A stretch of 64,000 nt of DNA from Perna viridis. Lineage: Eukaryota. Position numbers and translations under genes: made by a program. Below are positions 616 to 61,260 of the stretch, piece by piece (positions within the stretch are counted from its first letter, which is position 1; the number at the start of each line of letters is the position of its first letter). The DNA is taken from NCBI GenBank assembly GCA_037379345.1, contig CM074515.1, positions 16,182,001-16,246,000 on the forward strand, given 5' to 3'. The notes below the pieces were generated by a model. That model saw nothing but the letters and a program-made list of their open reading frames with translations, was not told the origin of the DNA and made no database searches.

Positions 616-711
616 ATCAATGATGTCAAGTGTTTTAAACTGTAATTGAACTACTCTTGTGGACTTCACCATAGCACTTTACAATAAATAGAAATATATA
701 TCTGATTTCAG

Positions 712-22200: not shown

Positions 22201-25200
22201 TTTTCTTTGTATAGAATTTTGGCTTTGGAGAAGTTGGGTGCTGTGTTCAATCAAGTTTCTCATCCAGTACAATTTACACCAAGAAAATTTGTGATCCATC
22301 ATGAATCAAATAACCTGGTGGTGATAGAAGCTGACCATAATGCTTATACAGACGCAACAAAGATGGAGAGAAAACAGCAAATGGCTGAGGTAAGTATGAG
22401 TCGTCCTCTTATTTTCAATAGAGTTATTTCTATTTTTTTTTAATGTTGTCTCTATATAATTTTATGTTATTTTTAGCAAGGAAGTCTTCATGGATTTCTA
22501 AAAGTCATGCTTGTAAAGTAATGTATGCTTTCAACAGATGCTTTAAACAAAAAAAAATCCTTTTTTATTTCAGGAAATGGTAGAATCTGTGACAGAAGAA
22601 CAAAGAGAAATGGCAGCTGAGATGGCAGCACAGTTTTTGAATGAAGAACTACCAGAGACTATATTTGGTTCTGCAAAAGCAGGAGCTGGAATGTGGGCTT
22701 CTATCATCCGTGTCATTAATCCAATCACTGGACAGACACTGGATAAAATTACACTGGAACAAAATGAGGCAGCTCAGAGGTATGCTTATTTCAGTTGATA
22801 GGGAGCATTCATTTTTAGAAAATCTGTTATACACTATCTTGATGAAAATATAGCTCTGCAATGCAATGTTAAGATTTGTTATCTCCTTTTCATAGAAATT
22901 ATAGGGAGATACAGAAATGTTACCCTTGATCTTTTACCTCTTATCATTATTCTTGTGGGCATCTCTTAATTGACAGTAATTGGTTCATACTAGGATCATA
23001 GATAAAGTCTCAAACTCTGCTTGGTCATAGTGTCAAAATCTAAGTCATTTTTTTTTTCTGATATACATGTCAGTTTTATGACATTTGCTTCAGTCCTTTG
23101 CTTCTGATTTAATGATAAAACAGTTTTTATACTTTTCAGCATTGCTTTGTTAAAATTTGCCAGTCGAGGTGATGACCAGTTTGTATTAGTAGGTGTGGCT
23201 AAGGATTTAGTTTTACAACCCAGATCAATAACTGCTGGCTATATTTATGCTTACCAACTCACAAACAATGGTGAAAAATTAGAATTCCTACATAAAACTG
23301 AGGTTGAAGAAGTACCAGCTGCAATTACTACTTTCCAAGGGAGATGTTTAATAGGAGTGGGCAAATTTTTAAGAATTTATGATCTTGGAAAGAAAAAGAT
23401 GTTGAGGAAGTGTGAGAATAAGGTATGGAAAAAATAAGTTCTTTTCTTTTTACTACAAAAAAAATTATGTTTTATTCATGAAAAGCTATTAATCAAAATA
23501 CACTTGGCTTCACGTATTAACTACAGTTGCTTAGTAAAAGAAGTGTCCTGAAATTTTTCATGTAAAAATGCAGTACTTGAATATATTATTCATGTAAAAA
23601 TAATCAGTTCTTCAATAGCGTAACCGTATGAAATTGACTGATCTCTATCCATTTTTTATTTCAGCACATTCCTAACTTTGTTGTTGGAATTCATACAACA
23701 GGAAGTCGTATCGTAGTGGCAGATATTCAGGACAGTTTTCATTTTCTACGCTACAAACGTCAGGAAAATCAGTTGATTGTATTCTCTGATGACACAAACC
23801 CACGATGGGTCACTGCATCTTGTATGTTAGATTATAATACTGTGGCTGGTGCAGACAAGTTTGGAAATATCACCGTGGTAAGTAGTAGAGAATGGATATT
23901 AGAAAAGAAACAGTAGCTTGTGTTGAGTGGATATTTAATGACATGGAGTTATGAGCAAGACATGAACTGACATAATTTCAAATAAAACAATTCTCAACTA
24001 ATGAAAATGAAAACTATGTATCTATCATTGAGTAAATGTGTTCTTTGTATTGATCGTTAGAAAAATGCAACTTTAATCTTAATCTGAATATACATTTTCC
24101 TGTAGGTACGCTTGCCAGAAGATATTAGTGATGATGTTGATGAAGATCCTACTGGAAATAAAGCATTATGGGATAGAGGTCTTCTAAGTGGAGCTTCTCA
24201 GAAGGTTAGTGGCAATCAGACTAGTATGTTCTGTTTAAAAACAGAATCGAAAGTCGGATATTATTCTTTAATTTAGACAAGTATGATACAGGTCTTTGAA
24301 GTAGAGCTTATCAAAAGATCCACAACTTTGTCAATGCATTGGCAAAAAGAATCTATAAATAGACCAAAGCAGAACAAATGTAATATTGTAGGAAAAGAGT
24401 TTTTTTTTATCAGTGACTACCAATATCTGCTATAATTTCATATCTGATATGGAAACTAATTTTATTGTTTCTGTTATGTCCCAAGATAATGTTAAATACT
24501 TTAAAGAAATTAAGTCAGAAGTAAATTGAATTCTCTACATTTCCATGGTAACTAGAACTTTCATTCCTGTTACATTTGTCATCTCATATTGATGTTTAGT
24601 GTCTTTAATGTTATTTCAGGTTGATACAGTAATCAGTTTCCACATTGGAGAGATAATAACATCATTACAGAGAGCTACCCTTATTCCAGGAGGTTCAGAG
24701 TCTCTAGTCTATACCACATTATCTGGTGGTATCGGCATGCTTGTACCTTTCACATCTCATGAGGTATAGTCTTATTTAACAAAAAAAATAGTTCTATAAT
24801 GATATGGTGTTGTCGTCCATTGACACTTGGATTTTGTTCGGTGACTTTATTATTAATGGATCTAATATAATATTAACCATTCAAGATCTGCAGTTGTATC
24901 AAGCTGCACTCAGCAGAGCCTTTTATTCACAAAAGCCATAACATCTTTACCTTAGTGTAGGTGACAATTCATGTATTATATTTTTTTGGCCTTTTGACAG
25001 CAGATTCATCTTTGTAAAGATGTGTTGATCAAATTTAGGGTTTAATGTGGATATGATGTAACTTTCATCCGTGTTTCACCTGAGAAACTGATTACGACTT
25101 GCAAACTGATCCACATATCATTATTTAGAAAAATACATAATTTTTAATGAATTTAATGGAATAGTTAAGTCCCAAAACTATGGATTATGCATCTTTATTG

Positions 25201-30324: not shown

Positions 30325-33300
30325 TCATTTTTGTTTTATACTGTAATCCAGCGACCGGTTACATACTTCCTGGATCCAATCCCTTTCCTTAGTCCGTTTG
30401 TGTGCAACTACCTTAATTTCTGTGTTTCCGAACTCGAAATCTACCAGAATTTCCACTGAGTAATTTGACGGTTCATTTAGATCAATTTTTATCTCCGCCA
30501 ATTTCTTGCATCCGTTATCGTCTATGTATTCAGGGTTTTCATATGGACTGTAATATACACGCAACTTAGCGAATTCTTGATTTTTGTCAATGGTTTTAAA
30601 AGTATGGGAGCGTTTTTCACCAAGGGATACTCGCGTTTTGGCGGAGACCAATTGATGGAAAGTGTCCGAACAACGCTTAACCCCATTGACCCATATTGCC
30701 CTGCTTTTATGATGCTTTGTTGGATCAAACCTTACACTGCTTGCGATCCCATACGTATACTTTAGTAACCTAGAACATATGACATCGGGTTTATGTCCAT
30801 ACGTTACAGCCCCTTTCAAAACTGCGGTTGAAGCCTCTTCCACTGTTTGAACTCTTCCGGGAAATATTTCCTTTAAAGCATTTTGGACAATAGACGATTC
30901 AGATAGTCCACCGACTAAATAAAATGTATCAACGTCATTTGAATCGCAAGCTTCTAATGTGTTTTGTATTAATGACTCTATTTTTTTTATTGTAGTTTTG
31001 AACATTGAAAGATAGAATTCCTCTTTAAATTCTAATTTATCTTTAAATACTTTAAGGCTTTCTGCATGTTTCGATGTCCCCAGTAAATCAATGAAGTTCT
31101 TATTCTTGGTATTTTCCAAGCAAAGGGAATTAAATATTGCAATTGGAATCTGCAATCGTTTTGAGGTAGAACCGGATTTCTTTTTGAACTCTTCAATAGA
31201 CATCTGAAGATCTGAATATTCTTCTAAGTAGTCTTTCTTTAGCTTTAACATCATGTCAGTTCCCATCACATCACGAAAAATGTGTAAAAATGCATTATCA
31301 ATATCTGTACCACCGCATTTTTCGCCACATGGAATACATATATTTTTCATCTGGCCATCCTGTAAAACTTCCTGAACAACTGTATCGGTAGTGCCGCCTG
31401 AAAATTAAATAATTCGAAATAAATACAAGGTCGTAGCCAAGGGGAGGTGCGACGGGTGCGATCGCATCCCCTTTTAAAAAATACTTTGATTTACATCTTA
31501 GCCTGTAATTAAAGAGAAATCATACCAGGTAACCAAGTAAAATTGCTTATCGGTGATCAGTTTGCACCCTACCCCCATTCAGAAAACCTGGCTACGGCCC
31601 TGTAATATCTGGCAAAATTTAATGGGTTGTGTAAATTCCAATATGATAGATACTCGCAATTTTATACTTTGGAAAACATTACGGACCCAAGGGCCGACAT
31701 TTTTATTATTTTCTATACACAATAATATGATTTATTTTTAGACAACAATTTGTCCGTTTTTCATTTAGGCCAGAGCAGATTTACTTGAAAAAAAGAATTG
31801 TCAAGTTATTATTGAATTATTATAGGGGATCTTGTCGAATAAAACAAGTAGGATATCGTGAAAAAGAAACAAAAAGTCAAGTTAAGAATGTAACTAAACA
31901 ACCTCCAATGTCGACAAGTAGGAACTTTTGCTGTTTTTGAATGAAGCCCTTTGTCCAACAGTACACTGCTGCAGTCTCAGGCTCGTGGGCCAAGCAAAGG
32001 TATTTCCCGAGACCAGCCTGAAATGGTGAATTTACCGTTTAAANNNNNNNNNNNNNNNNNNNNNNNNNNNNNNNNNNNNNNNNNNNNNNNNNNNNNNNNN
32101 NNNNNNNNNNNNNNNNNNNNNNNNNNNNNNNNNNNNNNNNNNNNNNNNNNNNNNNNNNNNNNNNNNNNNNNNNNNNNNNNNNNNNNNNNNNNAACACACG
32201 ACATAATTTCAAAAACAGCGAAAAACCTTTATAACAACAACAAAAAATACAAAAGCAGTCATCTGAGCTTGAAAATGGTTTTCTTTTGTTTCGATTCATG
32301 TTGAGTTGATAATTTCTTACTCTTAAAAATAAATCACACACCAGCACTCACACACACAACCAGACTATTATTTTTGCCGTCTACACACCTTTTTTCCGCA
32401 CTGTCGCATGAAATTCTTTGCTGCCTCTGACCAGATTGTAGGCACCGTAAGCACCCATGATATCATATTCTCTTGGAACTCAGGATGTGAAGCCTTGAAG
32501 TGGTCACTCAAGACTTTTATGGAAGCAATAAAAACCGTTTCTGCCTTGAGTGGTTTTCCTGAGACATCTTCAACCACGAATCCATCTTCATTTACCTACA
32601 TGCATTAACATGTTATCAAGGATTAATTCGGAAAGAGATTAAGTTTGCGAATATGGACCGTTACTTTAATCGACACTGCATATAATGGGAAAACGAACGG
32701 ATTATGGTGAAACACGTAAAAACCTACACCAGATAGTAAATACATGTACTTTCAGTAGAATCATTTCATCAGCAGAATAGACCCGTCAGTGAAAGGCCTT
32801 TCTTAATTTGTAATTTATCCACTTTTCATTCAATTTCACGGGCACCAGATGTACTTTTGTTCATTATACATTGTAAAATAACTAATCTTAAATCAAGTAA
32901 TATGATGTATTGAAATATTACATTTTAATTGGTGATTTTATCAGCTAAAGTGTTTTAGTGGTTAAAACTCAGTTCTTCATACGATATACACATCAATTCT
33001 ATGTCTAACTATCCACAACACAATATTAACAGTATTTCTTTTTTGTGAACCAGTGGGTGGAAGTATGATGAAAATATAAACGTGATACTGTTTAACACAA
33101 ACTCGTTTTAAGTGTTTACGCACAACTTTTAAATTTATACGCAAATCAAAATACTTTTTTCTAAGGGAAAAAAAAATTAAACGTGTCAATTTTAATAAAT
33201 ACTAAAACCAAGGCTGATGTTCTTAGTTTCATGTATGAATGAAAATAATAACATTAGAGAACGTCTAATGGACTTTTACCTGTTCGCTGTAAAGATTCAT

Positions 33301-40812: not shown

Positions 40813-43800
40813 ATGGCAGACGGGAAGCAAGTTGTGGTAGACAAGAAAAACAAATACGACAGACAGCTTAGGTTTGTTTATTTTTTTACAGTTTGCACTT
40901 ATTATAGTACTCTGATGTGCTTCTTCTTTGCACTTCTCACAATCTACTTTGTATTACTGATAAGCAGGTGAGATATTAATGTAAGGATTTGGCCATTTTG
41001 GGCCAAGAGATGACTTTCAGAGATGTGCTTCCAACCTTTTGTTAAATAGTCAAATATAGTATAGGAGAGTTCTCTGTGTTGTCATCACTTACCTATGATT
41101 TGGTTTTGGTTGGCAAAAACCCATTGAGTGGCATGGGGCATCAACTTTAAATCATCATTAGTTACTTTTCCGTTTTTTAAGATAATTGAAAAATTCTTTT
41201 TGGTTCCCTAAACTGCCAATCAAACTCTTTTTATCCATGGAATTTTTAAATCAATATTCAGTAATTAGACTAAATGAGCATAAAATTTTAATTATTATTT
41301 TATATGAAAATAGAGGTTTACATATAAATATCGTTTCAAATTTATTCTTCAAGTAAAACAATTATAAATTCACATGTAAAATATGAATTCTTTTATGTAA
41401 ATGAAACATTTTACAGAACCAAAATTGGATGTAAAATAACAAAGCTATAAAGTTTTGAAAATTGGTATTCTAATCATCAAATTGTTAATTGTTTATTTTG
41501 TTGTTTATTTGCCAACCAATTTGACACTTAATGATATGCAAATTAGTGAATATGACATCACTAATGAGATTGGCGAACTTTCCTATAGTCCTTCATTTTT
41601 CAAGTATAGGACAAACTAAGCTCATAGATTCTGAGAGGAATGGTTGCATCATGTATTGGTTACTGGAACTGCTACTCTAAGTTGTTTAACCCATTCTACA
41701 AAAGAAGGGGTTAATATGAAACAGACACCATGTGGAATGCTCCTCAAGGACAGAATTCTTAACTAACAATGTGCTAACTTGCAATTTTATACAATTCTGA
41801 AAATGGTTCGAATTGTCAGGCATTCATAGGGATGTATCTATGGATGAGACGGATGACATCATTTTAGTAAACACTTCAGCGCTGCCATCTCAAAACAAGC
41901 ATTTCATGATTCTGTTGACTTTCTTGGAAAAAGTTATTTGTTTTGAATTGTTGAAGCTAGCAAATGTTTCCGGAACGGGAAAGGTTCTCAATCTTATTTA
42001 CAATAATTACTAACTCATGGCTAAGTACCATGTACACTACACTCAGCGACTTTTGTTTCTCTAACACTCAAGTTGGAGTTTTAACCCTTAAGCTGCTATA
42101 TGCTACTATTGTCGTTCCGATATTTTGATGGAAAATTGTTACACGCGACTATTGTCATTTTCGAAAATAAGTTGTTTAAGTTCGTTCCTAGACAAGGAGG
42201 GAATTCGGGAAGCAGTAATAAAGGAAATAAATTATATTATATGTTTTGATTGGTCCAAATCTTGCGTATTTCAAGATTCTCGGATGTTTTTATGAATTAC
42301 AAGGATAAAATTGAAAGTAAATACTTTTGATGAAAAATATCTCAAAATGGTGGCTGCTGATTTGAGTAACGATTATGAAGTTGCCATTTTTTCAACGAAG
42401 TGAAGACGATGATGCCAAATTCGAACATTTGGGACCAGAGAAGATGAATCTTAATTGAAATATACTTTGCAATTTATCCCTGCGTGATTTTTCTCCGCAT
42501 TCTGATTGGGATTCCCCCAACGACCTCTGCAATGGATGAGTGCAAAATGACAGGGAGGTTTACTGGAAAAGCAAAATCGAACAAAGACTTTATGCCTTAT
42601 GGAACTCCTTTGGATTCTCTAAAACTGTTTATTGATGATTACTTATAACTGTCATAGTTGGTGAAATGAACTGATATGTAGAAAAGAGGGACGATGATAA
42701 TTTTTTCAGCATTTCTTTGATGTTTTCATAGTAAACAAGTTAAAAAAAAATAGGAAGTACAAGCTGCTAGCCCAGACCATAGTTTAGTTTACTATTTTCT
42801 ATATGTTCAACTATTTTTACCAAAAAGTTCAAAATCTAGTAGGCATGGGCTGCTGGGTGACTGCTAATTTTTATCCCTGCTTGATATATACCTGGGACTT
42901 TTAACTTTTTAATGTGTGAAACATGTTTTCAGAAGTTTTATGTTTGTAAGTGTTTAATTATTATGAAGTCTTATGTTTATGGAATTGTTCCAAGTATTAA
43001 ATCATCAAAACTTATATTATCTCACATTCATTTGCACCTGGACAGGTAAATATTGCAGATGGGAACAAACAAATGTGAAAATATGACACTATAGAATCCA
43101 ACAATACTTTTATAGGTCTAAGATTAATAATAACAAAGATATGCTCATTCAAACAGTAAGCACAATTAGTCATTTTTCAATTTTTTTATGCAGCATTACA
43201 CAATTAAACAATAGAAAATAGCATAGCAGCTTAAGAGTTAAATCTGTGTTTGTTGGTGAAACACCGTGACATGGTGAAAAGTGAGTGTTACACTCACCCA
43301 TCTGGGACATTGTATATTCCTGTTGTTTATTGTTTATGGAGAATCAGTGACCTGGGTGTGAAATTCACCCACCATGGTGAAGTTAATCTCATTGATCTCT
43401 GCCGACCAAATGGACATTTGTACATATAAAATAAAAGTAAATATCTGACATCTTGCCAAAATTTTTTAGGACCCATTGTAAATAACAAGATGCTAAATTT
43501 TCATTTTCCAATTTTTGATCTTCTCTAACATTTAGCTCCCTCAGGTGCATTCAAATATATCATGTTAAAAGGATCAAATTTTCAATAAAAAATGAACCAA
43601 AATAAGGTACGTGTAGGTATGTTATGCATTATTATGAGTCAAAATTGGTCAGAAACTGAGCTAGTCGAAACAATCAAACATTGTATGCTAAAAAATTTCA
43701 AGTAAGCTTTATCTTCTGTCTAGGTTTAAAAAGTATCTAAACTTAGAAACAAGGAAACTGTTTTACTCAGGATATATTCTCTCATTAAGTGTCTGTTGTA

Positions 43801-46800
43801 GTTCTACATGTATTTGGGACAATTGTACAAAAGAAAATTTACAACATGTACTTATACTACAAAAGAGGGCAGCTAGGCTTATACTTGATGCAAAATTCTG
43901 TGCCCCATCCAGCCCCCTTTTTAATTTTTAGTTTAGGTTGGCTAACTGTTGAGAATAGAATTATACATCGCAAGTGCTTTTCTTGATTGATCATCAAATG
44001 GGTTAGCTCCATCTTATTAGCAGATAAAATAAAATTTTTGTTTGAAGTAAATCCATACTGTTCACAAAATGCCATAAACAATGCTATTTTTATTCCTAAA
44101 TCTCAGACAGAACTATCGAGATATTCTGGCCCATCTCATTGGAATACCCTCACAAATGAAATAAGAAGTTGAAAAGGAATAAGTCTTCTTAAGCAGAAAT
44201 TAAATATCTTCCTAATAGAACAAAGGACTAAAGAATAATTCAATTTTATTTACATGTTTTATAATGTTAAGTGATAATCTTGTTTGAATGCATTTATGTA
44301 TAATTTACTAGTACTCATTTAGTGGCATCATAATTAACTTCTTTATTTTTGTTTCTATTGTGCGAGGGCTTCAGGGAAGATTATAGGTAAACTATCTGTG
44401 TTACCTTCTAAAAATGAAGTATTATTAATATTATTATTGTAATTAATGGTAGTCCTTGCAGAAATGAAAATGTAATTGTATTTATTTTATGTACTGAACA
44501 AATGTGGAGATAGATGTATATTGCCAAAGGTTATTGGACATACATGTAAATGGAATCTGCTGTAAGAATTGGTCTATACAAGAGTAAATGTCATGCATAT
44601 AGTCCTGATATTAAGATGCAGTATAAAACAATATGATTTTCTTGAATTTTCTGCCCACATCTTGTGGGAATTGGGGCATCAAAAATTACTGATGTACTTT
44701 TGAATGTAGCTTAGCATACTTGTACAAGAAATAGCTAATTTCCATTGAAGTATGCACATACAAATTGTGTGCTTTCTGTGTTTACTTATTGTTTTTAAAT
44801 ATTTCAGATTATGGGGAGACCATGGACAATCTGCTCTAGAGTCTGCATGTGTTTGTCTTGTCAATGTTTCTGCAGTTGGTACAGAAATACTCAAAAATAT
44901 GATTTTACCAGGTAGCAATTTTAATTTTTTTGTTTTTTGTTTGGTTCTAATTGCTCAAAAATCTCAAAGATCACATGATTTGCAATTGAACTTGCTATTT
45001 AAGGTTTAAACACAAATATCCCATCAATAGCAAATGATATGGATTCAACATTCCATTTAAGGTTGTTTTAGGAGTTAACAATGATGGATTTATCAAATTA
45101 AAAAAAAAAATAAGGTCAGGCTGACAGATACATTTAACATAATACATGTACATACATTGAATTCTATCTAATTTAATATAGTTACACTAGATATGAAAAG
45201 CATTATGAAAGTCAATTAAACTGATAATATTTTCTGTTGTGAAAGTTTGTTTTAAATACAGAACAGGTTCTATCAGCTGTTTTTGTTGTTGTATTTCATT
45301 GATAACCTCTGTTTTAAAAGTTAAATTTTTTTCTATGTAATCAGGAATAGGATCGTTTACCATTGTGGATGGTAGTAAAGTTAATGGAGAAGATGTTGGG
45401 AACAAGTTAGTACTTTTTGATTAACTTCATGTAATAGTGTTGTATGATTGGTTCAAGTATGGTTAAAATCTGTCTGATAAATAGTAATACACACTGTGAC
45501 TTGTTTAAAAATGTTGAACTGGCTAATTAAATATGACTGTATAAAATCTGTATATGTGTGGCATGAGTCTAGAAAACAATGTTTTAGGCTTTCGTTTTCT
45601 TTTTTATTTGTTCTTACAAAAAAGTATCAAAGATAATAAAACACAAAACTGTGGATGGACATACACTGCTGATTTATTTCTGTAATATATAGACCTAATT
45701 TTTGATTACCATTGTAGCTTCTTCTTGACCAAAGACAGTATTGGAGAGGTAATGTACATATTGGAGAGGTAATGTATCTATTGGAGAGGTAATGTATCTA
45801 TTGGAGAGGTAATGTACATATTGGAGAGATAATGTACATATCGGAGAGGTAATGTACATATTGGAGAGGTAATGTAGATATTGGAGAGGTAATGTATCTA
45901 TTGGAGAGGTAATGTATCTATTGGAGAGGTAATGTACCTATTGGAGAGGTAATGTATCTATTGGATAGGTAATTTACCTATTGGAGAGGTAATGTATCCA
46001 TTGGAGAGGTAATGTACCTATTGGAGAGATAATGTACCTATTGGAGAGGTAATGTACCTATTGGAGAGGTAATGTACCTATTATAGTTGATCTGGTAACA
46101 TAGATATCTTTTTAGAAAGAACTCATTTACAGCTATGTCAACTGATATATAGAAGGTTTTGAGAAATAAAAAAAGCTGTGTTTGTGTACTTTTTTGTAAT
46201 ACTGTAATGAGAAAATCCATTCAATTTATTTGTACATGTACCAAGAATTTTAAGAAAACACATATATTGTTATGGTTTTTCAAGTACAGCATACCTTTAA
46301 ATTATCTATGAAAAGGTACTTCCAGCTTCTGATGTATATAAAAAAAACAATAAACAAATCTGATATAAGTTGCCATGGAAATCAGATAAATACAACACAA
46401 ATTTGTAGTAAAGTTTTTGATTGAGTTCTCTGTTACATTTATAGTCTCGAGCCAAAGCTGCAGCTGAGCTACTGAGTGAGTTAAATGATGATGTTACAGG
46501 AGATTATGTGGAAGAGGTAATAGCAGTCAAATTTATATATCATATTCAATCAAATTGATCTGTATTACATTGTACAATGATAATCTGCTGATAAAATAAT
46601 GTTGCTACAATGCCATGGTCTCCAACCCTAAAAAAGAAATCTTTGATAAGGAGATACCATTATCATCCATGATATTGAGTTGTAAATAGTCTGATTCAGT
46701 CAATCAGAAAAAAAGTTCTTGCTTTTCTTTATTCTGTGTTACATTGTTAATTCACTATAGTATTTCAGATAATGTATGATTTGTTAATAATATGTTATTT

Positions 46801-49800
46801 AATTAGCTCTCTACTACTTATAGTACTTTAACTAAAGCTCAGTTTAATTTCAGAGTGCTGAGAAGTTAATCCGAGCTAACCCTGACTTCTTCTCCACATT
46901 TACAATAGTCATTGCAACTAATTTGTGTGAAAGGTATTTCTTATTGGCATTCTTGTGCTGCTGATTTAAAATAGTGGAAATTAAACATGTTTACCTAAAT
47001 AAAGTATTTCTTTTGACACAGCCCATGATAGTATAGTGGATAAAATTATTACTTCAAATTTTTGAACAATATCTCTTTGGGGTTTCATATTCTTCATTTT
47101 GTAGTGAAATTTTATTTTTTTGCATTTCCCATGAAAATTTGATTTTTATAAAACTTTTAATGCAGATGGGTTTATTGCCAGGCATGCAACATATATGAAT
47201 GGATCCTGAACTACTATTCAAATGCTTGGAGATTTGTGATTTACACATCGTTGAGTTCAGTATTAAAGAAAATCATGTTTTCATGTAAAAATACAGATAA
47301 AAATAGAAAAATATATATTTCTAGATGATAAAAATGATAAGAAAAGCATAAAATAGAAGATTTTGCATTGTAATGCAGCATTTTTGAGATCAAGAGAAGT
47401 GAACAATAAAATGCAAATCGGTCTTCAGATTTCGAGTCTTACTTATACATCAGAAATTCCTGAAAGGAAAATGAAACTAGAATGAGACTTATAAACCATA
47501 TAAATAAGTTTTGAATATTGAAATTGTAACAACTATGTCTGATTATCATCAGCATCACAAATAATCTAACACAGAAAGCTGCAATGATTTGAAATTTCAA
47601 ATGGTCAAGCTTTCTTTGTTATTTCTGTTTTGTTGACTTAAGTAACATTAGAACTTTTATGACCACATGACTTGTTTTATTGCAGGGAATTGTTAGAGTT
47701 AGATTCATTGTTATCTCAGAAGAATATTCCACTGTTAGTGTGTAGAAGTTATGGTTTCATTGGATATATGAGATTAGTAGTCAAAGAACATACAGGTATC
47801 ATCACAAAACCTCTTAGTTTTATAGGTTATCTGTCTTGATAAAGTCATCATTAATAAATTTCATTACATGTAATAGACTGAGCAGCTTTCATCCTTACTC
47901 CAAAAGAAATTAAAGGGGAGGTTTCATGGATTTTATTATTCTCTCTTGAAGAACAAGTTTTAGCCACGGTCCTGCCATTTGAGAAGGAATTAAATCTTGC
48001 AATTACTTCCTATTGGCCTTAAGAAAATTGTTTGCCTTAGCACTTTTAAAGTCTCTAAGCAATTACAAGGTTAATTGTTATCTGTTAGATCAAAAGAAGA
48101 GAACATGGAGTTTTTTTATGCATCAGTTTTCTTTTTACAATATTAAAATGACAGAGATCTTCACTTAGTTAGCTCCTAAAGATTTCATTTTGTTCATCTT
48201 GAGGAAGTAGGAGATAACTGTATTGTATTTGATGGTTTGGAAGTGTCAACTGTGGATTTGATGGTAGCAAATTGAGTTTATTGGCAATGCTGGCTGGTGA
48301 GTGGATGTTTTCCACTGCCAAATCTAGATTCACAAGGACAAATCTTTAAAAACAATATGGTTATATTAACATGCCTAAAAAATTGCTGACAGTACATCAT
48401 TGAATTATTATCCAATGAAATTACAATGAATGATGCATTATGAATATTAACTCACTACTTCTCTTGATTATTTCAGTAATAGAATCTCATCCAGACAGTG
48501 CCCATGAAGATCTGAGATTAGATCGCCCATTCCAGAAACTGGTGGATTATTGTAATTCTCTCAACATGGAAACTATGGATCAAAAGGTACATGGTGGTCT
48601 AAAACTTTAGTTTATTTTAAGTAGAAGAATTTTTTAAACCTCTTCTTTCCATACATTCTACTTTATAGAATGTAGGTATATTCTAGAATTGATATAGGGA
48701 GATCTGTCTGTCACCTAACCAAATGTAGTATTTCTTTTGACACACCCCATGATAGTATAGTGTTGTATGTTTGTAACATTGATGTTGTAGGGAGAATGTA
48801 AACGACTTTTGTATGCTGTGTACATATTGTCTCTGTGTGTTGTTTTTGAATAATTTATGTCCAAATTAACTGTTTATTCATGACTTTACATGTATACCAT
48901 AATGATGTTGATTGTGTGAGGATGCAACTTAATAAACATGTCTGTTTTTTGTGTCGTGGACTTAGTCAATTTTTACAACCACTTGATCAGGATTATAGTT
49001 ACAATGCAACACAACATGATTCTACAATAGTACAATGTCATTAAATTGTAGGGAACAGGATTAAAAATTGTTCTCTTCTTAGATTAAGTAGTACATGTTT
49101 GCTTTTAATAAATACTTTGTTGTATTATATGGTTATGTTTCAGGATCATTCCCATACACCATGGCTTGTTATTATCTACAAATATTTACAACAATGGAAA
49201 GAAACAGTAAGTTCACATTATACAAATTTGCAAGTTTATTAGTGGCAGTGCTTCATGGTTTTATAATGAAGACATTAATCTGAAATAGCTGTCAATTATG
49301 ATGGTGGATGGCAAATTAAGGTTAAGGTCATCATAATTGATAGATATTCAAAATTAAAAGAGAGTGTCTAATGGATCACAAAGGTGTTCTGTGGTGGTTA
49401 AGGAGGGCACATTGGTATAATGTAGGGCAGATTTCTAACTAAAGAGCTATTTAAATTACTCACTAGCCTAGCTAGATTTGTATTGAAATTGGAGCTGGTC
49501 TGTTTCAACTAGCTGTAATCACAGCAAATTTGTAGGACTCATTGAAAATCAGCTGCAAGAGTAATAACATCACAGCAGTTACCTCATGTTTGTTGGTTAC
49601 TTAAAAAATATTGGTTCTAGATCATCTCTCAACACTTTATATCACACTTATTACATTGTATTAATAATGACTAATATATGAATAGTACTGTTAAAACAGT
49701 TTAATCCTTTTTATTTAGCATGATGGTTGTGGTCCTAAAAATTATAAAGAAAAAACACAGTTTAAAGAACTTATAAAGAAAGGTAAGTAAACATACCCAT

Positions 49801-52800
49801 ATATTATTATCAAGTTTTTATAAAAAGATATTTAAAGTTAATTATCATCTTGATTACAAACATGATATTTTTCTGCTTTAAAACTGAATTTTGCTTCTCA
49901 AATCTGGCTTTTACCGTTTCTTTTTTTACTGTAAGGTGCCTTCAGGTTATGTCAGTTTCTGTTTTTTGTTGTTGTTGGCTTTGTAAAATCAATTATCTTA
50001 TCTCCAGTTAATTGATGCTGTTTATCACATGGACATAATTCATTGAATCAGTACGAAACATGTATAAATAATGTGACAGTTCTTTTGTTTGTGGGGTACC
50101 AATTTTTGTGGATTTCATTGGCAAGGTAAACCGTGAAATTTGCTTCCAAACGAAAAAGATTATTTTCTTTAAATTGCATGACAGGATCATCAAAACAATG
50201 AATCCATGATCTTGTGCTTTTCCCCAAAACCACAAAAGTTGATACCCATGAATATAAGTACTTTATATAAGATTTGTCAACTTACTGGAGATGTATATAT
50301 TTAAAGTTATTCACTTGTCACTCTATATTACAGTTTTTACTTTCTTTAGTCTGTTTTTTTTTCAAGGTAAAATGAAGGATCCTTAGGGTACTTAAGTGTT
50401 TTATTCTTTACTTCCAGGTATAAGGAAGAACCCTTAATGTAGTTAAGTGTTACCCTTAACCTCCATGTATAAGGTAGAACCCTGAGGGTACTTAAGTGTT
50501 TTATTCTCTGTTACCAGGTATAAGGAAGTGTTTCATTCTCTGTTACCAGGTATAAGGAAGAACCTTGAGGGTACTTAAGTGTTTCATTCTTTGTAACCAG
50601 GTATATGGAAGAAACCTGAGGGTACTTAAGTGTTTCATTCTTTGTTTCCAGGTAAATGAAAGAATGCTGAGCGTACTTAAGTGTTTCATTCTTTGTTTCC
50701 AGGTATAAGGAAGAACCCTGAGGGTATACCACTGGAAGAAGAGAATTTTGATGAAGCTGTTAAGAGTGTTAATTCAGCACTGGTACCCACCTCTGTATGT
50801 TGTAATTTTTATTGTGTTATCAATAAGTTGTCCATTTGTGAAATTATGAATAAATATTTCATAGATGATAAAATATTATGTACATGTGCATGGAAATGTA
50901 ACAATCAAATGTACACTTGGTTTATAACATTAACAGTAAGTGATTTATCCCTATTGGAGATATTAAAAAAAAACTTATGTTAGGTCTTTTTAATGTACAT
51001 GTATACTTGAACATACATGTATTTTTCTAAACTATTGCTCTACATCATCCTCTTCTTTGCATCGTACTTCAGAAACTACATGTATGTTTTCTGGGTATTG
51101 TCAGAAATGTTCTTGTTTTTTGTTTATGTTGTTCTTGCAGATTTTTATATTGTTATTAATGTTAACTGTTAAATGGAAGCTTTATTTTCATTTTTTATTT
51201 ATACTACATTGACGATTTGAGTTATGTCCCTTTGTTTGCATAATTTTTATGTGGGCATTGCCCTACAGAATGATATAAATAGTTAACTGCCTTTGATCCT
51301 TTTGTGTTCTCTTTGAGTATTTATTTTCCTGTCCAAGTAAAGACAATTTTCAAATTAAATAATTAGTATTATAATGATATTAACATAAGTAACAGCACTG
51401 GTAATGAATGTATGCTTGGTTTTTTTAAAGATGCCTGGCGATGTCAATCAGCTGTTCAGTGATCCATGTTGTGATAATGTTGACTCTGAGGTGAGTATAA
51501 CACAGTGAAAATTCTATGTAAAAATTTTACATATCTTTCAGACATTAAGATAAGATTTAAGTTAAAAGATCCATGTAATTTGTCATTATACATTGTTTTT
51601 ATAACCATTTTTTATGTACATTGTACCAAGAGCTGGAATTTAAGATTATAAACCAATTAGGTTATGATATAATGCCTTTTAAATAGATACAAATTTTGTT
51701 GTCAATTCTTTGGTAACTATTGTATCTTGATAGCTTGAATTTGGATAAGGAAGCATTCCATTAGATAGATCACGTTATTTACATTGTGCAGTCCTCTCAA
51801 CACTTGGAATCAAGCAATAACAATTAAATAAAAGTATATGAAGGTGTATAGTAAAACATAACTTGAAAATATACCCTGATTTCTCTATTTTTGCTTTAAA
51901 AACATGGGTCATAATTTTGGAAATATTTAAATTCCATCTGGGACTTGATCTTCAATATACCTTTAGGAATTCACAAGTAATTCCATTTCATTTATGTTCA
52001 GCTTGTACTTTTTACAGAATTTTTTTTTGTATTTTCAGAGTTCATCCTTCTGGATACTAGTTAAAGCTGTTAAACAATTTGTAGAAAATGAAGGTCAAGG
52101 TAATTGTATAGGATTTACAAAGTAGTTCTCACAATAAAAAAAAAATGTATCATCAGAAATTATCAGATTTGCTGAACCAAACTCAATTCAGCCTGCGTAG
52201 ATTTTAGTGTGATTTTTTTCTCTGAATAATAAACTCTTACCAGAAAAAACAGGCTAGTAGAGTTTGCATGGTACTTGCCCAACAACTGTCTTACTGATCC
52301 CTTTTCAGTAGCTAATATGAGAATTGATGACAAAAAAATATATTCATAGAGCATGTATAATTCACTTTGCAGAATTCAATTTTTCTTACTCTCTTTCATA
52401 TTGAAATAGTAAAAAATTCTTGTCTTGAATGATGCAATCTGTAAAAACTCAAAACAAAATAAAATACACGAAAACTTTAAGTTAAATGTTGTGGAAAAAA
52501 TTTTTTTTAATAGTTTTTGATGAGTGCTGGGTAGTTTGTCTCTTGAGAATGATATAAATACTTGATGAATGATAGTATAATTCCACAGGTTATTTACCTT
52601 TGAGAGGAACTATACCTGATATGACAGCTGACTCAAATAGGTACATACAGCTACAACATGTATACAGGGATCAAGCTGATCACGATGTTGCTATAGTAAC
52701 AGATAAAGTCAGGAGGATTGAACAAAGTATTGCTAAGGTATTATTCATTTCTTTTTTGATGAAGTCAGTGTTCTGTGTAAAATGAAAAATGATAGTTTGC

Positions 52801-55800
52801 TTTCATTTTCTGAATTTGATATCTCAGAAGTTTCCTTGTCTATTAACACAATATATATATTTCAACCAAGGCTCTGGAAACAGCAAAAAATGCTTTATAT
52901 TGACTGAGAAATACTTTTGTTGGTATACAATGAAGACACCATTTTGTGTCAGTCTTCTGTGGGAATAGTCAAAGGATAATGGACATCTATACATGCTGTG
53001 TAATTAATCCTCATTATAATTCACTAGAAATTGAGTTTGCCAAGTGTCAACTATTTCATGCTCAGTAACCCATAAGCTCATGATTAACCTGCCCATGGGA
53101 CTTATGGATGACATAATTTAATTATTTCATACCATTTTGGTTGCATGTAATTGTTTATTCAATAAAGATTGATAGTTCACACAATTGTCACCTTTTTCAT
53201 TTTTGCAAAAGATGCACAGTACCTCAGTGAAAAAAAACATGGTTAGTGTAGTAAAGGAAACTATTTGTTGGGTATAAAGCCCAAAATGTATTTATGGACA
53301 CAACACATTGTAAAATTTCATCCAGCCTCCATCATGATGCTATTGCAAAATATTTTTAAATTACCCTTCAAATTGTATCAATTCTATGTATTTTATAGTA
53401 GTTTTTCTTATTTGTATATAAACAACCAATCATTTACTTCAGACCATGGTTTATGTTAAGTAAAAATTGTCTGTAAAAGTGATGGTAGCTCATTTTCAAG
53501 GAATTAGAATGTTAGGAAATGGATTTTCTCGCTGAATTGACTTTCAAAACTGTAAAAATGTGTATAGGTCTTTTTCCTTCTTCATTTAAGTGTTCTAATG
53601 AATGTAATCTGTATGGTTGACACCTATTGCTACAAACATAAACTCATCTTATGAAGACTGACAAAAAGACCAAAATTGAATGAACAAATTTCTTGTTTTC
53701 AATCCATTTAAATATTTTTACTTTGCCTTAATTTCAGTTTTGAAAATTAGAACAGGTTATCTAAGATCAAATATGTTGAGGGCTTCATCTCTATTTTGTT
53801 AAATATTGTTAAAAGGAGTCGGACTAAGTTTTGAATAAGGTTTGAGTGTGCTTAATTATAGGAGAAATAAATTTTATAGTTATTTGTAAGCTGGGATTAG
53901 AATGTGTTGAATTATACTATCTATAACTTTGTGAGGTGTGATTAGAGTATGCTTAATTATTACTTCGATAACTTTGTAAGCTGTGATTAGAGTATGCTGA
54001 ATTATTATAACTTTGTAAGATGTGGTTTTGGTCTGTTGTAGGAGGAACCACTTCATATAATAGCACCACCAAAACATGTATGATTTCTCTGTTACCCTTT
54101 ATTTACTCCAGTTATTGGGCAAGGAATTGTCAATGTTATTGGCAGAAGCAGTGCATTTTGTTATTATATATTGTGTCAATCATTATAAGTTAAAAGTTAT
54201 TGTTAGAACAACTCCTTTACATCTGTTTTTAAACCCCCACAGTAGGGGCTATATTGCAGTTACTTTGTCCGTCTGTTATACTTTTTAGCTCACATGGCCT
54301 TTAGCTATTGCCATCACTTGGCATTCGTTGTCTGTCGTCATTTTCGATAACAATTATATAAAACTCTTCTCCTCTGAAGCTACTTGACCAATTAGAACCG
54401 AACTTGCCGTTACTGAAAATAGAACATAGGGGTCAGACAGTGATTAAGCTAAATTTTGTTTAAGGTGGTTATAAGTGTTGAGCATGATGAGATCTATCTG
54501 TGGTCAAATATTTGTTTTAATTTGTTAAGTCATGTTTAGTTATTGCCCTTTTATGACGTTTTTTTGCTATTTTTCATGTTATTTCTTTAAAAAATCTTCT
54601 CCTCTGATACTACTTGACCCATTGAAACCAAACTTGGTACAAATGTTTCTAGGGGTATCCTGCATAGAACTGATGTGGGAATTTTTGATCCGTTGAAAAA
54701 CATGGCCACTGTTACTAAAAATAGAATATAGGGGTCAGACAGTAGTTTTTCACATATATCGCCAAAATCGTTAGTTTAGCCAAATTCTTTCAATAGCTGA
54801 AATGATCCTTATTATTAGGACCACAAAAGTCTTCAGGGATCAAAGTTGTCAGATGACTCCTTGTAAGAGTTATTGCCCTTGAAAGGAGAAAAATGATGTT
54901 TTGTTTTGTTTTATTTTTTTTTTTTTTTTTTACAGTTTTTAGTCAATATTTTGACAACTATGATAGATTATAAGAAACTTTCAATTGTTGAAATGATTCT
55001 TATGATAAGTCCTACCAAAGACTTCTTGAGTCAAAATTGTTGGACAATTTCTTGTTAAAGAAGTTAATTCAGTAAGGGCAAAATTTGGACTTGAAAACAA
55101 AGTTTACATGAAGAAACTTTAATGTTGTTTCTCCAGCTCTTCAATGTGTTTTATAGTTGATTTGATTAGTATATTGTAATAGTTTGAACCTATATGGTCA
55201 TATAAGCCCTTCAAACTTGATCAAGATTTGAAAACCTGTTAAAAAGGCTGAAAAACACCTAATTTTGTGCCGTTTATCACTCTTTTAACAATGGCCACAT
55301 GCATGCTGACTCTCTTTCTTCTTAATTTTGTGTATAATTGTCAGTTACAACTTGTGTAAAAATATCTTGAGTCAACAGATGTGTGGCCACTTCCATTCCA
55401 CACAGAAAACACCGTAAAAATTGCAGAATTGTTACATGTTAAAGGATTTTGTAAAAATTACATAAATGCATACTGCTATTTCTGGAATAATGTCATAAAT
55501 CTTGTCAAAAACATTTTATATTCAGTGTTCGCCACCATTTTACTATACTACTACTACCTAGAAATCAGCTTAATCAAATTTTCAAAAATGCCCAAATTAT
55601 GAGGCCAAAAGGGGTCCTTACCGAACATTCTCCTTTATTGCCTTTGAAGGGCAAAATTCAACCAGTTGAGCGATTCAGGCTCCTGGGAGCCTCTTGTTTT
55701 GTTACAGATTTCTCATTTTCTACTAGAGGGAATGCTTATATATTTGTAATAATGCTTTTTAATGATGACTTGTACTTTGTCTCCCCTTTTCAGGTTCATG

Positions 55801-58800
55801 AGTTATCTACTTCCTGTTTACTGATCGATTTTGTAGTTTTATATAGGTGCTGCATAATGGAAATTTTGTATAAGATTTCTCAGCTTCTTTCAGAGGGAAT
55901 GCTAAAATAATTGGTTTATAGTTTCTGCATGATGACTTGTACTGTGTCACCTTTTCTCAGCTTTTACTGAAATGGTTGAGAGAGAGTATTCTTAGCACAA
56001 CATAGCGTGCGACATATTGTTCATTTAAAATTATTTAATGTCCCACTGGTTTTATTACAGATGCTACACATTAAAAAATGTGTTGTTTGAAACATAGAAT
56101 TTTCACTCAAGATTAACATACCTCAGTGAAACTATTATTGAAGTATGTACCGGTACTCAATAACTAAATAAGTGGCTTTAAAAAGCTTTGACCCATACAT
56201 ATTTCATGCTTGGCTGAACAAACAAATACAAAGGAATTTAAACATTTGAATCCTACTATTAGATGTATATCAATATTCCCATACAATATTAATAGATTTT
56301 AAAGTAATATTTGAATTAAAAATGTTGTAGCAAAATGCACTGATTATTTTCTATGAAATTCATAAAAATAAAAGACAATTGTAAATTTACAACATAGAAA
56401 GAGAATCTTCTGATCAACAATTCAAAGCCACATTGACATACTCCTTTTATTGGACCAGAAACAGAAACATGACAACTATGTCATTATTATGTCAACAATG
56501 TCATTGATATGTCTACATGATGTCTGATAAACAGTACTTCATTTTGTTTACTGGTTTTCTGTTTTGTGTTTATTTATTTTCCAAATTCAAGTGCTCTACT
56601 TCAGGCAATTTGTTTTAACTGGCTACCGTTCTTCAGATAAGATCATTGTTTTAAAAGAATAATTCTCATGTACAATAATATGTATTCTTAACTATGTAGA
56701 CTTGTAAAACATCTGTAATTGTTGGATGATTGAATAGCATGACATATTTTTGAGCCCATTGTTTCATTATTTAATTGTTTGCCACTTACGATGTACTTTT
56801 GTATTTTATATTAAATTACTCAAGGGCCTCTACATTTTCAGATTGCTACAGTTTTTGTCCTGTTTCTATTTCATTATTGGTCCATTTGCACATGAATGAA
56901 GTTCTGTATTAGTTGCTAATAAGTTTTGACAAGCTGCATGAACAGCTCTTTTCTATAAATAGACTATAATGTCAAGTTGCCACGTTATTTGTTTTGCAGT
57001 GTAAGCAAAGCTTCTTCAGTTTTCTATGAATAGACTGTAATGTCAAGTTACCACATTATTTGTTTTGCAGTGTAAGCAAAGCTTCTTCAGTAAAGCCTCA
57101 ATTTGGTGTTGCAGTTTTTGATATGATTTTATACAAATTATTAAAAAAGGAAAAAGCCTTTGTTGTAGTTTTGATATAGGGCAATTTGTGTACAAATAAT
57201 TAAATTGAATAAAACTGCATGTCTGAGATATAAAGTTGACTTGACTTTTGTATGTAACTGTATCAGATCGTGTAAGCAGTATAAAATATCAAAAACTGCA
57301 GACTTATTTCACCACAATCTTTCTTTTAAACAAAGCAGGAAATCCTAAGATGATTCTGTTTTTATGATATTTAGTGTTACCTAGTTCACTCTTTTTATTT
57401 AATTACTTGGTATAATGAAAGATTTCAGTATGATCCCTACTGATATTGAAGTAATTATTATGTTTTATTTATACTTATTATGTACTGTATATATAAAGAA
57501 AAATAGTGGCTAAAACATTGATAGGAATCCAATGAAAGTTCATAATGTGGAAATAAAAAATCAATAAATTGCATCGAGGTGTTAAGATTTTGAAATAGCT
57601 AACTATGTAGATTGTTGTAATTGAAAGTGCAAACAGTTCAATCATGCAACAAATATTCTCAATAAAATACAACTAGCACTATGTGTATAATTTTAGTTAG
57701 ATATATTATACTTGTAATTTGCCAAGTGAATTAAATTATTTAATATATTATATTAAAAATATAAAATTCTCTTTCTTAGATCATGCTTTTTGGATATGTA
57801 TTTACTCTTTCAGGGTATATTAAGACTATGCTTTACACTTTAAAGAAAACTGAAAGTTTTGTAAGCTCACCTGCACACAATTAGCATATATCTCTGCTAA
57901 TGCTTTACCAAGATTTAGAAATACCCGGTATTTGCAAGAATGATGTAAGAACAGATGTTCATAAATGATTTTGTGTATCCCACTTGATCATTTGATATGT
58001 TTATCAAATTTTACAGGTGAGCGATTCGGGCTCCTTCAAATCTCTGTTTTTTTTCTTTTAACACCAAAAGCTGTTGTCATGTAGATGAAGAAAATGAAAT
58101 GACTTCGCCTTTCAGGAACATAATTTCTAGTATTTGCTTTCATTAGAAGACAAAACATAAATGATTCTCCCCCTTTCCTTTTTAACTTGATCATTTGTTT
58201 TATCAGATTTAGCTTGGATGTATTTTTTTTTTTGATAAATTTTACATGGAAAAATGTGTTTCATTAACTTTATTTTTTTCTGTTACAGGATACCATTATA
58301 TCTGATCATGACATTAAGTTATTCTGTAAGTAGAATTAATATCCATTCAAAATAGTACTCACATCAGTGCCATCCAGTCATATAGCACAGAGATTTTCAA
58401 TAAAGATCAACCAGGCGTAATGCAGTACACTAAAGAGAAGATACGACAGAATTGAAATTAAAATTTTTAAATTGTATCCCTCTGGGTCAAAATCTACAGG
58501 AGTGTAACACCCACAAAATTCGGCGGTATATTTTATACACTGGTGATAGCACTGATTACAAAAACCTTATGTTTTTACACATATTAACTGCTTGGGAATA
58601 AAGGTGTTTGAAACTGTTAGAGTCTTGAGGTATTGTTTTTATTTAGTATCTATTTAAATTAACCCACATGTTTGTTTAATGGACAATAGTAAATATTTTG
58701 CCAAATTTAGAAAAAAAGCATTAGATTACAACTGAACTTCTACATTGTAGTAGAATATCCAGCAGATAGCTTAACATACCAAATCAATAACTCATAAATG

Positions 58801-61260
58801 GATGTGTAAATGTTTTATGTTGCAGGTAAAAATTCTGCCTTTTTAAGAGTATTTAGATCTAGATCATTATCAGAAGAATATGATAGTTCAAAAGCTAATA
58901 TACAAGTGATAGGTAAGGAAACCTAGACAGTGAAGAACTACAAAATCTTCAATTTTAGTTAAAGCTTTGGTGTAATCTATTGTCAGAATTAACAATAAGG
59001 TACATTTTCATTCTGAAATTATAGTAAATTATGTAATTATACCCTCATTCAGTGGTATATTGGAATCACCTTGTCCGTCCCTCCGTCTGAGTTTCCTTCC
59101 TTTGGATAGATTGATTGCTAATTTCGTATTTGGTTTTATATAGATGGTTCATATGTTGTAAGTGATTTTAATTTGCTGTCCAATATCAAATTCATGTCTC
59201 TTGGGACTTAGCCATTGTCACTATACGGAATGAGTGAGAGTATACCATGATAGTGCATACAACTTAATGTTCTGTCTGAATCAAATGAGAGATATGATGA
59301 AAAATTAATTTACCAAGATAAAGTTTGGTTAAAAACAAGTCAGATTTATTAATATTTGTGAATTAAACCTCATGCATGTATTAGGGTATACAAAAGTAAA
59401 CATGTGACAGATGTTTAAAGAAAATTTGAATCTATATCCCACAAAAACCATGACTATTATGTATGTTTTAATGATCATTTTAGAAAGCGCTCTTTCATGT
59501 TACTTGTCTGCTGCTTGTATAGAAAACAATTTTGGTATTCGATAAAAGTAAGAAAAATAATATTTTATAGTACCAGGCATCCGACTAGTGGCTGTGTTAC
59601 TCTAAACAGCAGGCAATAGTGGCTATCATCAATAACATTTTTATGATTTGGTGTTGTATCTTTCCTTTTGTTCTTTTGTACAAATCAAGGAGTATAAAAA
59701 TCTGATTGTTCTTCAGTACTGGTAAAGGGGTATATAAAATTTGAATATTCTTTTGCACTAATCAAGAAGTATATAAATTCTTATTGTCCTTTTATACTGA
59801 TCAAGTAGTTTATAAAATCTGACTGTTTTTCTGTCCTGGTTAAGGAGTATATAAAATCTTATTGTCCTTTTGTACTGATCAAGTAGTGTATAAACTCTGA
59901 CTATTCTTTGTTCTGATCAAGGAGTATTTAGAATCTAACTGATCTTTTGTACTGATCAAGTAGTGTATAAAATCTGACTGTTCTTTTGTACTGATCAAGT
60001 AGTATATAAAATCTGGCTATTCTTTTGTACTGATCAAGTAGTATATAAAATCTTGCTGTTCTTTTGTACTGATCAAGGAGTGTATAAAATCTTATTGGTT
60101 TATATTGCAGCTCAACATTTGTCAGATGAAGATAGTGATGATGAGTTTATATTTTATGTTCTCTTACGGGGTGTAGATAAATTTAATGAGGAGTATAATA
60201 GATACCCTGGTGTATATGAAGATCAAATAGAAGCTGATATTCCAAAGTTAAGGGTAGGTAGATACTAAATGATTTATATTGTACCCTGTTTATGTTTATA
60301 ACAAAATAATTTAATTTCAGAAGTAACACACTTTCTGATTGGATAAAAAATTTTGTCCATTTTGTAATGTGACTGTGAATGTTTTTTAGTGTACAAGTCA
60401 TGATTGAGGTTATTTCTTCATAGACTGAAAATATCTAACAGTCATTCATTAAGAAACTTAGACTTTCAGAGCTGGTTTATGTACCTTTTTTTCCCAGTGT
60501 TTTAATTTTTGCCATATTCCTGGTCAGCATCAGGATGCAAAAAAAACCAAAAAAAACACTTATACAGTATTATTACAATGATTTGTTTTGGAAGTTCAAA
60601 ATGAAGTCAGGTAAACTGCTAAATCATGGTATTATTTTGAGTTAAAACATTCTATGTGAGAAAACAAAGAAAAGTTTTAATTATTTCTTAATTGGTATAA
60701 GTTTTTATAAACTTTCTTTATTGTAGACTTGTGTACAGAAACTTATACATGATTGGGGTCTTAATTCTACCTCTGTCAAAGATGATTACATTCATGAAAT
60801 GTAAGTAGTATAGTTTCAATTCATAATACCTGATCTTTTCTTCTTATCACAAAATAATGATCCCCTTTATTGTATCATATTCTTTTTCATATGAAGTAAG
60901 TTTTTAAGGTTCTAATATTTGATAATTAAGTTATGCCATGTAATGTAAAGCCTATTATTATATTGTTAATTAAAAAAAATGTTTTTGATTTCATTTTAAC
61001 AGAAGAATGAACCTTTAGTAGCGAAGTAAATGTTTTTTTTTTCTTACCGAATCTAAGGTATGATGAGGTGGCATGTTATCACCATTTATATTTTTTTCAG
61101 ATGTCGTTATGGAGCGGCTGAACTACACACAGTCTCATCCTTCATAGGTGGTGCTGCAGCGCAGGAAGCTATTAAAATACTGACGAAACAGTTTGTCCCA
61201 TTTAACAACACCTATATTTATAATGCAATGAAACAATCGTCAATGACTGTACAACTGTGA
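40813..61260 (+). CDS. NAE1: NEDD8-activating enzyme E1 regulatory subunit (APPBP1), complete, 19 exons, 538 aa
   Basis: [27 protein letters not shown] ... [25 protein letters not shown]...TVQL*. Exons: 40813-40871, 44808-44911, 45345-45405, 45718-45748, 46445-46516, 46854-46933, 47686-47795, 48477-48586, 49144-49206, 49719-49782, 50703-50794, 51431-51490, 52039-52099, 52589-52737, 58289-58325, 58826-58912, 60111-60253, 60727-60800, 61101-61260. Sum 1617 nt. Confidence 0.96.
42085..43237 (+). mobile_element. Non-autonomous piggyBac-like DNA transposon in NAE1 intron 1
   Basis: TTAA at 42081-84 and 43238-41; TIR CCCTTAAGCTGCTAT / ATAGCAGCTTAAGAG (1 mismatch in 15); internal decayed transposase-like peptide [12 protein letters not shown]...IVGEMN near 42605-42675. 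Confidence 0.8.
45741..46080 (+). repeat. 17 x 20-bp minisatellite built from the NAE1 exon 4 donor site
   Basis: Unit TTGGAGAG|GTAATGTA(CA/TC/CC)TA; the first unit contains the true exon-intron boundary at 45748/45749. Confidence 0.97.
50345..50725 (+). repeat. ~8 x 51-bp minisatellite built from the NAE1 exon 11 acceptor site
   Basis: Unit TGTTTCATTCTTTGTTTCCAG|GTATAAGGAAGAACCCTGAGGGTACTTAAG; AG ends at 50366, 50417, (50466 mutated), 50517, 50549, 50600, 50651 and the true site 50702. Confidence 0.93.
53880..54025 (+). repeat. Degenerate ~45-bp tandem repeat (about 3 copies) in NAE1 intron 14
   Basis: Recurrent ATAACTTTGTAAGCTGTGATTAGAGTATGCT(T/G)AATTAT. Confidence 0.7.
54282..55696 (+). 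mobile_element. Longer Helentron/HINE-like repeat copy in NAE1 intron 14
   Basis: TTTTTAGCTCACATGGCC start, CCAGTTGAGCGATTCAGGCTCCTGGGAGCCTCTTG end; internal blocks match 222-615. Confidence 0.75.
56951..57090 (+). repeat. Tandem duplication of ~71 bp
   Basis: TTCTAT(A/G)AATAGACT(A/G)TAATGTCAAGTT...GTAAGCAAAGCTTCTTCAGT occurs twice in tandem. Confidence 0.85.
57864..58047 (+). mobile_element. Short HINE-like remnant
   Basis: AGCTCACCTG ... CAGGTGAGCGATTCGGGCTCC termini as in the other copies. Confidence 0.5.
59672..60097 (+). repeat. ~11 x 39-bp minisatellite ending just upstream of the NAE1 exon 17 acceptor
   Basis: Unit TCTTTTGTACTGATCAAGTAGTATATAAAATCTGACTGT with period 39 (copies at 59944, 59983, 60022, 60061); acceptor AG at 60109-60110. 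Confidence 0.9.

Follow-up and report, generated by a model that had tools for sequence, protein, structure and literature searches.

Minisatellites that carry an exon-intron boundary within the repeat unit are known from human genes. Among the closest is the 37-bp VNTR of F7 intron 7, in which only the upstream donor is used (Borensztajn et al. 2006, PMC1557585), and arrays of the same architecture are reported through that source for CBS (a 31-bp VNTR of 15-20 units in intron 13), 6-16, LMNB2 and PDGF. The 25-bp VNTR of human ABCA7 intron 18, whose units start with the donor GT, changes the splicing of its own region and gives rise to NMD substrates (De Roeck et al. 2018, PMC5954066). Splicing-associated repeats have also been catalogued in human (PMC10078293). 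A different kind of system is decoy-type retention, in which extra splice-site clusters go with the retention of a single intron, as in SF3B1, OGT and ARGLU1 (Parra et al. 2018, PMC6097662) and at VWF exon 44 (Conboy 2021, PMC8706089); the decoys of the first three are conserved cassette exons in introns longer than 1 kb, whereas that of VWF is one exonic site.

The window analysed here is a stretch of 64,000 nucleotides of Perna viridis (contig CM074515.1, positions 16,182,001 to 16,246,000), in which the donor of NAE1 exon 4 lies in a tandem array. As in F7, unit 1 stands across the real exon-intron boundary, identical donors are repeated into the intron and the most upstream is the only one detected in steady-state RNA, and the array is almost certainly a boundary-spanning minisatellite of the F7, CBS and ABCA7 kind. 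It differs from F7 in having 17 units of 20 bp in an invertebrate, in the 31-nt exon and in retention of the whole intron, of which the F7 passages make no mention. Two pseudo-sites are used in CBS and 6-16, and none was detected in NAE1 RNA; measured ABCA7 alleles show retention of one unit and length-dependent skipping of the next exon, in contrast to whole-intron retention in NAE1. The likeness to SF3B1, OGT, ARGLU1 and VWF is the retention of a single intron rich in extra splice sites, but in NAE1 these are tandem copies of recent origin that carry a donor only, within an intron of 696 nt, and their decoy role is putative.

The architecture is therefore of little importance by itself, being known and common; what is new, and the useful part, is the selective retention of intron 4. 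A search of titles and abstract openings, drawn largely from open-access journals, brought up no paper in which a minisatellite across a donor leads to retention of a whole intron.

NAE1 and its exon 4 donor array

The gene was identified as NAE1 from the matches of exons 2 and 14 to human NAE1/APPBP1 chains (E 1.6e-12 and 8e-11, respectively), and the locus is single-copy. When 18 exons were joined by their coordinates, using the first donor of the array (donor 1), a product of 519 aa with no internal stops was obtained. The features are as follows (positions in the window):

40813..40871, + strand: coding part of NAE1 exon 1, with the ATG at 40813; its join to exon 2 shows up as a loose end in all four RNA runs
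44808..61260, + strand: NAE1 exons 2-19, intact frame of 519 aa, from exon joining and the human NAE1/APPBP1 matches
45345..45405, + strand: NAE1 exon 3, 61 nt; joined to exon 4 in 21 reads and in 3 contigs
45718..45748, + strand: NAE1 exon 4, 31 nt, from RNA joints
45740..46079, + strand: donor-spanning minisatellite, 17 x 20 bp, donors at 45749+20k
45749..45750, + strand: authentic donor (donor 1), the sole donor detected in RNA
45749..46444, + strand: NAE1 intron 4, 696 nt, retained selectively in RNA
45770..45772, + strand: in-frame TAA that would be included from donors 3-17 and is included in RNA that keeps the intron, from sequence and translation
46445..46516, + strand: NAE1 exon 5, 72 nt, with a donor (GAG|GTAATA) nearly identical to that of exon 4

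The array comprises 17 complete units, the first of which carries the exon 4 donor, and was called by TRF at 45739-46082 with a period of 20, 17.2 copies, 92% matches and no indels. In the register starting at 45740 each unit is made up of nine exonic bases, the donor hexamer and five variable bases; unit 1 consists of nine exonic bases, which are the last 9 nt of exon 4, and 11 intronic bases. GT is present in 15 of the 17 units and is replaced by AT in units 5 and 15 (at 45829 and 46029). The sequence GAG|GTAATG is found in 14 units and TAG|GTAATT in unit 12; beyond donor 1 there are 14 GT donors, 13 of them with the bases of donor 1 from -3 to +6. The units sort into nine types, and the 18-mer core of the array occurs 12 times in the 723-Mb genome, each time within the array, against no occurrence of a reversed control. 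The microhomology TATT is found at both ends of the array (45739-42 and 46079-82), which suggests that the array likely arose from a single copy by slippage between the two.

A preliminary description of this DNA had reported a 17-fold, 20-bp array across the real boundary of exon 4, with GT kept in 15 units and lost to AT in two. All of this agrees with the present analysis, the start given there (45741) marking the same array in a register one base later, and the exon numbering is also right, as exon 1 is joined to exon 2 in RNA. Its statement that only donor 1 is productive is borne out by translation: use of donor 2 would add 20 nt, shift the frame and lead to a stop inside exon 5, and donors 3-17 would run into the in-frame TAA. 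The polarity of unit variants that it described holds on average (variant class against position in the array, permutation p 0.001), and identical units adjoin beyond chance (identical neighbours p 0.04), but units 2-3 are of the TCT class and the overall divergence between units shows no correlation with their distance (Mantel rho -0.03, p 0.57).

Donor use and retention of intron 4 in RNA

Four RNA runs were examined. X21 consists of raw stranded RNA reads, of which 19% of the run was read, and a threshold of 3 reads was set for a junction; X13, X11 and X15 are RNA-type assemblies, and rare variants drop out of their contigs. Reads were placed on two stretches, one with the first three units and the other with the last two, on either side of 45800-46039, so that copy number and deep donors were judged from reads folding onto the end units. 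At position 45361 in exon 3 all 14 X21 reads have A for C, and the X13, X11 and X15 contigs are the same as the window; this is an allelic difference in X21.

Donor use was judged in steady-state RNA with NMD active. Sixteen X21 raw reads continue from 45748 into exon 5, compared with 21 at the exon 3-4 joint, and all three assemblies agree with this junction. No exon 5 junction from donors 2-17 reached at least 3 reads in X21, where later donors would fold onto donors 2-3, and the X13, X11 and X15 assemblies contain no junction to exon 5 except that from donor 1. Their donor 1 contig extends 28 nt into exon 5, which is the merge point of the retained-intron path, whereas by graph reasoning from k = 31 a path from a later donor would merge at 20 nt. 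The 95% upper bound on downstream-donor use in X21 is 17% if no such reads exist and 40% if two reads hid at each of two places. Donor 1 is dominant, which can be held with high confidence, and minor use of downstream donors is possible as NMD is active.

Among introns 2-10, intron 4 alone is retained, and this was seen in 4 of 4 RNA runs. In X21 the purely intronic bin 46187-46333 has a sense-strand depth of 3.0, and the depth is 0 in all ten purely intronic bins of introns 5-10 that are free of RNA-covered dispersed repeats (bins 47216-47509, 48098-48391, 49274-49567 and 50009-50302, which have such repeats, were set aside, as was the last bin). Introns 2 and 3 have a depth of 0 outside bins with repeats or A-runs. 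In X13 a contig of 420 nt connects the last unit, across the rest of the intron, with exon 5 at a depth of 21.2, and an unspliced contig from exon 4 into the array has a depth of 55; the corresponding unspliced contig of X15 has a depth of 69, with every word unique to the unspliced junction, and in X11 a 427-nt contig leads from the array into the intron at a depth of 10.3. The spliced branch back-calculated from the bin depth is 46 for X13 and 29 for X15, and the same calculation leaves 0.1 in X11, as expected.

By crude estimate, the unspliced shares amount to 11% in X21 (3′ part), 17% in X11, 32-54% in X13 and 70% in X15 (5′ end); these are rough values, as contig depths are means over words, the library types of X11, X13 and X15 are unrecorded and the X21 counts are small. 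The unspliced signal is larger at the 5′ end of intron 4 than at its 3′ end (up to 55 against 21 in X13). AATAAA motifs are present in the intron at 46165 and 46349, with an A-run and a GU-rich stretch behind the first of them, and may bear on this excess.

DNA contamination was rejected as the source of the intron reads because these runs show no coverage of introns 2, 3 and 5-10. An origin from another locus was also rejected, as the core is unique to the array and the X21 intron reads lie on the NAE1 strand. Recursive splicing at the AG|GT of the units is unlikely, given the lack of a pyrimidine tract, the short intron and the absence of such joints from the RNA. The selective retention of intron 4 is very probably real. 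It fits the idea, put forward in the preliminary description, of an array that binds U1, without proving a role for the array.

Possible causes of the retention

The best explanation, which has about an even chance of being correct, is that this minisatellite of the F7, CBS and ABCA7 kind leaves donor 1 in use and that intron 4 is retained partly through the 14 extra donors acting as U1 decoys. A 20-bp duplication would first have captured the donor and been tolerated because growth went into the intron. Weak donors 20 nt apart presumably cannot all bind U1 together, and the most upstream would win, as in F7; non-productive U1 binding beside a 31-nt exon may then slow the removal of intron 4, and the resulting RNA, with its stop at 45770, would be held in the nucleus or degraded.

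NAE1 has built-in controls for this explanation in exon 5 (near-identical donor, no array) and exon 11 (acceptor-side array). The intron behind exon 5 is not retained, which counts for the array as the cause. The exon 11 array also has AG|GT(A/G)A motifs and its intron is unretained in the part examined, which counts against it. Small exons can by themselves delay splicing, and exon 4, at only 31 nt, could do so alone, which also counts against the array. Intron 4 contains 15 AG|GT(A/G)A motifs, and each of the other 16 NAE1 introns has 0-4.

Two features of decoy-type retention are found here, namely selective retention in every RNA run and many competing splice sites within the intron; cassette-exon decoys are not, intron 4 being 696 nt long and the units being donor copies that are purine-rich before each AG. 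Clustered donors mark decoy-type retention (PMC6097662), one cryptic donor was enough for retention in VWF minigenes (PMC8706089), and a threshold of ~30 nt, possibly reflecting U1 steric interference, has been discussed (PMC3413131). Against the decoy reading, U1 bound just downstream of a donor can aid splicing in PAH (PMC5933811), and the passages on F7, CBS, 6-16, LMNB2, PDGF and ABCA7 mention no whole-intron retention (PMC1557585, PMC5954066). For an array-free comparison, no related locus was found in metagenome contigs and no array-free allele in the samples examined. That the array contributes to the retention can be affirmed or doubted about equally. The retention effect would most likely be a cost that the gene tolerates rather than a switch under selection, and a selected regulatory role of the array appears quite unlikely.

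Arrays of the F7 kind are usually called silent since the first donor alone shows in spliced RNA, and junction counting misses unspliced RNA; in NAE1 the cost seems to surface as just such RNA. If the array is the cause, repeats of this kind can reduce the output of an essential gene without new isoforms.

Alternatively, and as a tentative but real possibility, the array may be a neutral passenger, with intron 4 retained either because it lies behind a 31-nt exon with a weak donor and is spliced late, or because its retention is a long-standing trait of NAE1. No other exon of the gene is as short as exon 4, whose donor agrees with the U1 consensus at 6 of 11 positions and has no +5 G. The full splicing of intron 3 and the delay at intron 4 are what would be expected from ordered splicing around a small exon; known arrays of the F7 kind are mostly silent according to the passages in PMC1557585, and arrays are common in this genome (68 per Mb) with no enrichment at exon edges. 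However, the exon 5 donor is equally weak and its intron is not retained, and unspliced shares reaching 50-70% are more than one would expect for a constitutive intron in an essential gene. Retention of NAE1 intron 4 is also unreported in the same body of titles and abstract openings, and the NAE1 passages of PMC4734150 and 10.1101/035188 are silent on this intron.

The preliminary description had also proposed that the downstream donors compete, that a sizeable share of transcripts is thereby sent to NMD and that array length sets NAE1 output. Such competition is conceivable from the 13 donors identical to donor 1 over -3 to +6, and donors 2-3 would make exon 4 51 and 71 nt long. In addition, donor 2 is used in ABCA7 (PMC5954066) and two pseudo-sites are used in CBS and 6-16 (PMC1557585), and NMD would conceal RNA of this type, which could also form part of the surplus of unspliced signal at the 5′ end. 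The RNA does not support this ladder of donors, as no downstream junction reached the threshold in X21 against 16 reads at donor 1 (upper bound 17-40%) and none is present in the three assemblies; one-unit retention in ABCA7 is also unchanged by VNTR length (PMC5954066). This makes the proposal improbable.

Sequestration of donor 1 in RNA structure, for which the units offer AGGUA and its complement UACCU, is very improbable. The array does fold better than shuffled sequences (z -3.1, dinucleotide shuffles being a weak null for a tandem repeat), but by opening cost donor 1 stands sixth among 17 NAE1 donors, and the full array makes it easier to open (4.1-4.5 kcal/mol) than it is in models with a single unit (5.3-6.1); masking of the donor was rejected on these energies.

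That the array is an assembly artefact is next to inconceivable: although no read or contig was seen across the whole of it and the number of units, 17, is that of the assembly, its existence is established by the nine unit types, by DNA contigs from two other samples that begin or break inside unit 16 with raised depth, by the genome-unique core and by X21 RNA reads that run from unit to unit and include the AT-donor variant (3 of 17) and a GAT variant (3 of 17).

The units occur in independent DNA and RNA runs, and the array is present in samples of other animals. It varies internally between them, as an X11 contig carries units in an order that the window does not have. Of 1324 aligned positions, 27 differ between X4 and the window. 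Retention of intron 4 (~10-70% across samples) might be set by how many 20-bp units there are or by their state, and the array would then act as a naturally segregating dial on neddylation capacity, which is a doubtful proposition at present. If unit number does set retention, the locus offers a natural test of how tightly spaced U1 sites stall splicing.

A second NAE1 array, its genomic context and other features of the window

A further junction-spanning array was found in the same gene:

50361..50726, + strand: second junction-spanning array, ~51 bp x ~8 units, with the exon 11 acceptor and exon start, from TRF and sequence

Its units repeat the acceptor and the first 24 exon bases, with one short unit of 32 bp and one unit in which AG is changed to AT. 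The real acceptor is at 50703, and the six AG sites upstream of it all lead to stops. No retention of intron 10 was observed in its 5′ 640 nt in X21. Two of the 36 NAE1 boundaries are captured by arrays, against 0.10 expected, where the first prompted the search and the second alone gives p ~0.09.

Tandem arrays were then surveyed in a genome sample of 1.0 Mb (nine contigs, sampled as 100 stretches of 10 kb each, the window excluded), which contains 68 arrays per Mb. There was no excess of arrays at exon edges in this sample, with a score of at least 20 in 4 of 68 arrays and 30 of 408 random intervals (Fisher p 0.80), although this is a weak test as the scorer was trained on the few exons of the window. 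Two of the four exon-adjacent arrays look like coding repeats, one (L020) is a plausible acceptor array and one (L052) is unconvincing. At L020:3661-3819 a motif resembling a branch point, a pyrimidine tract and an acceptor recur together in three copies of 52 bp, the most upstream of which has lost its AG. The exon behind this apparent triple acceptor has a weak SQS_PSY match (E 0.025, below the cut-off) and may be NDUFAF6-like.

Other repeats were noted within NAE1. A 39-bp array of ~11 copies at 59668-60092 ends 18 nt before the exon 17 acceptor at 60111, the AG of which lies outside the array, and a 71-bp duplication in intron 14 (56949-57091) contains an acceptor-like motif to which no exon was assigned. 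Short, high-copy dispersed repeats, perhaps MITE-like, are found in NAE1 introns at ~47230-47500, ~49290-49520 and ~50085-50200, with a DNA depth several hundred times the background.

Elsewhere in the window, a multi-exon gene of the RSE1/DDB1/CPSF1 family (Pfam PF10433, PF23726 and PF03178) lies at ~10181-23913 (+ strand), and no TRF array was called inside it except a 23-bp doublet at 10154-10199. Long ORFs are present at 692-2551 (+ strand), with a BRCT domain, and at 30325-31404 (- strand), with an Hsp70-family match.
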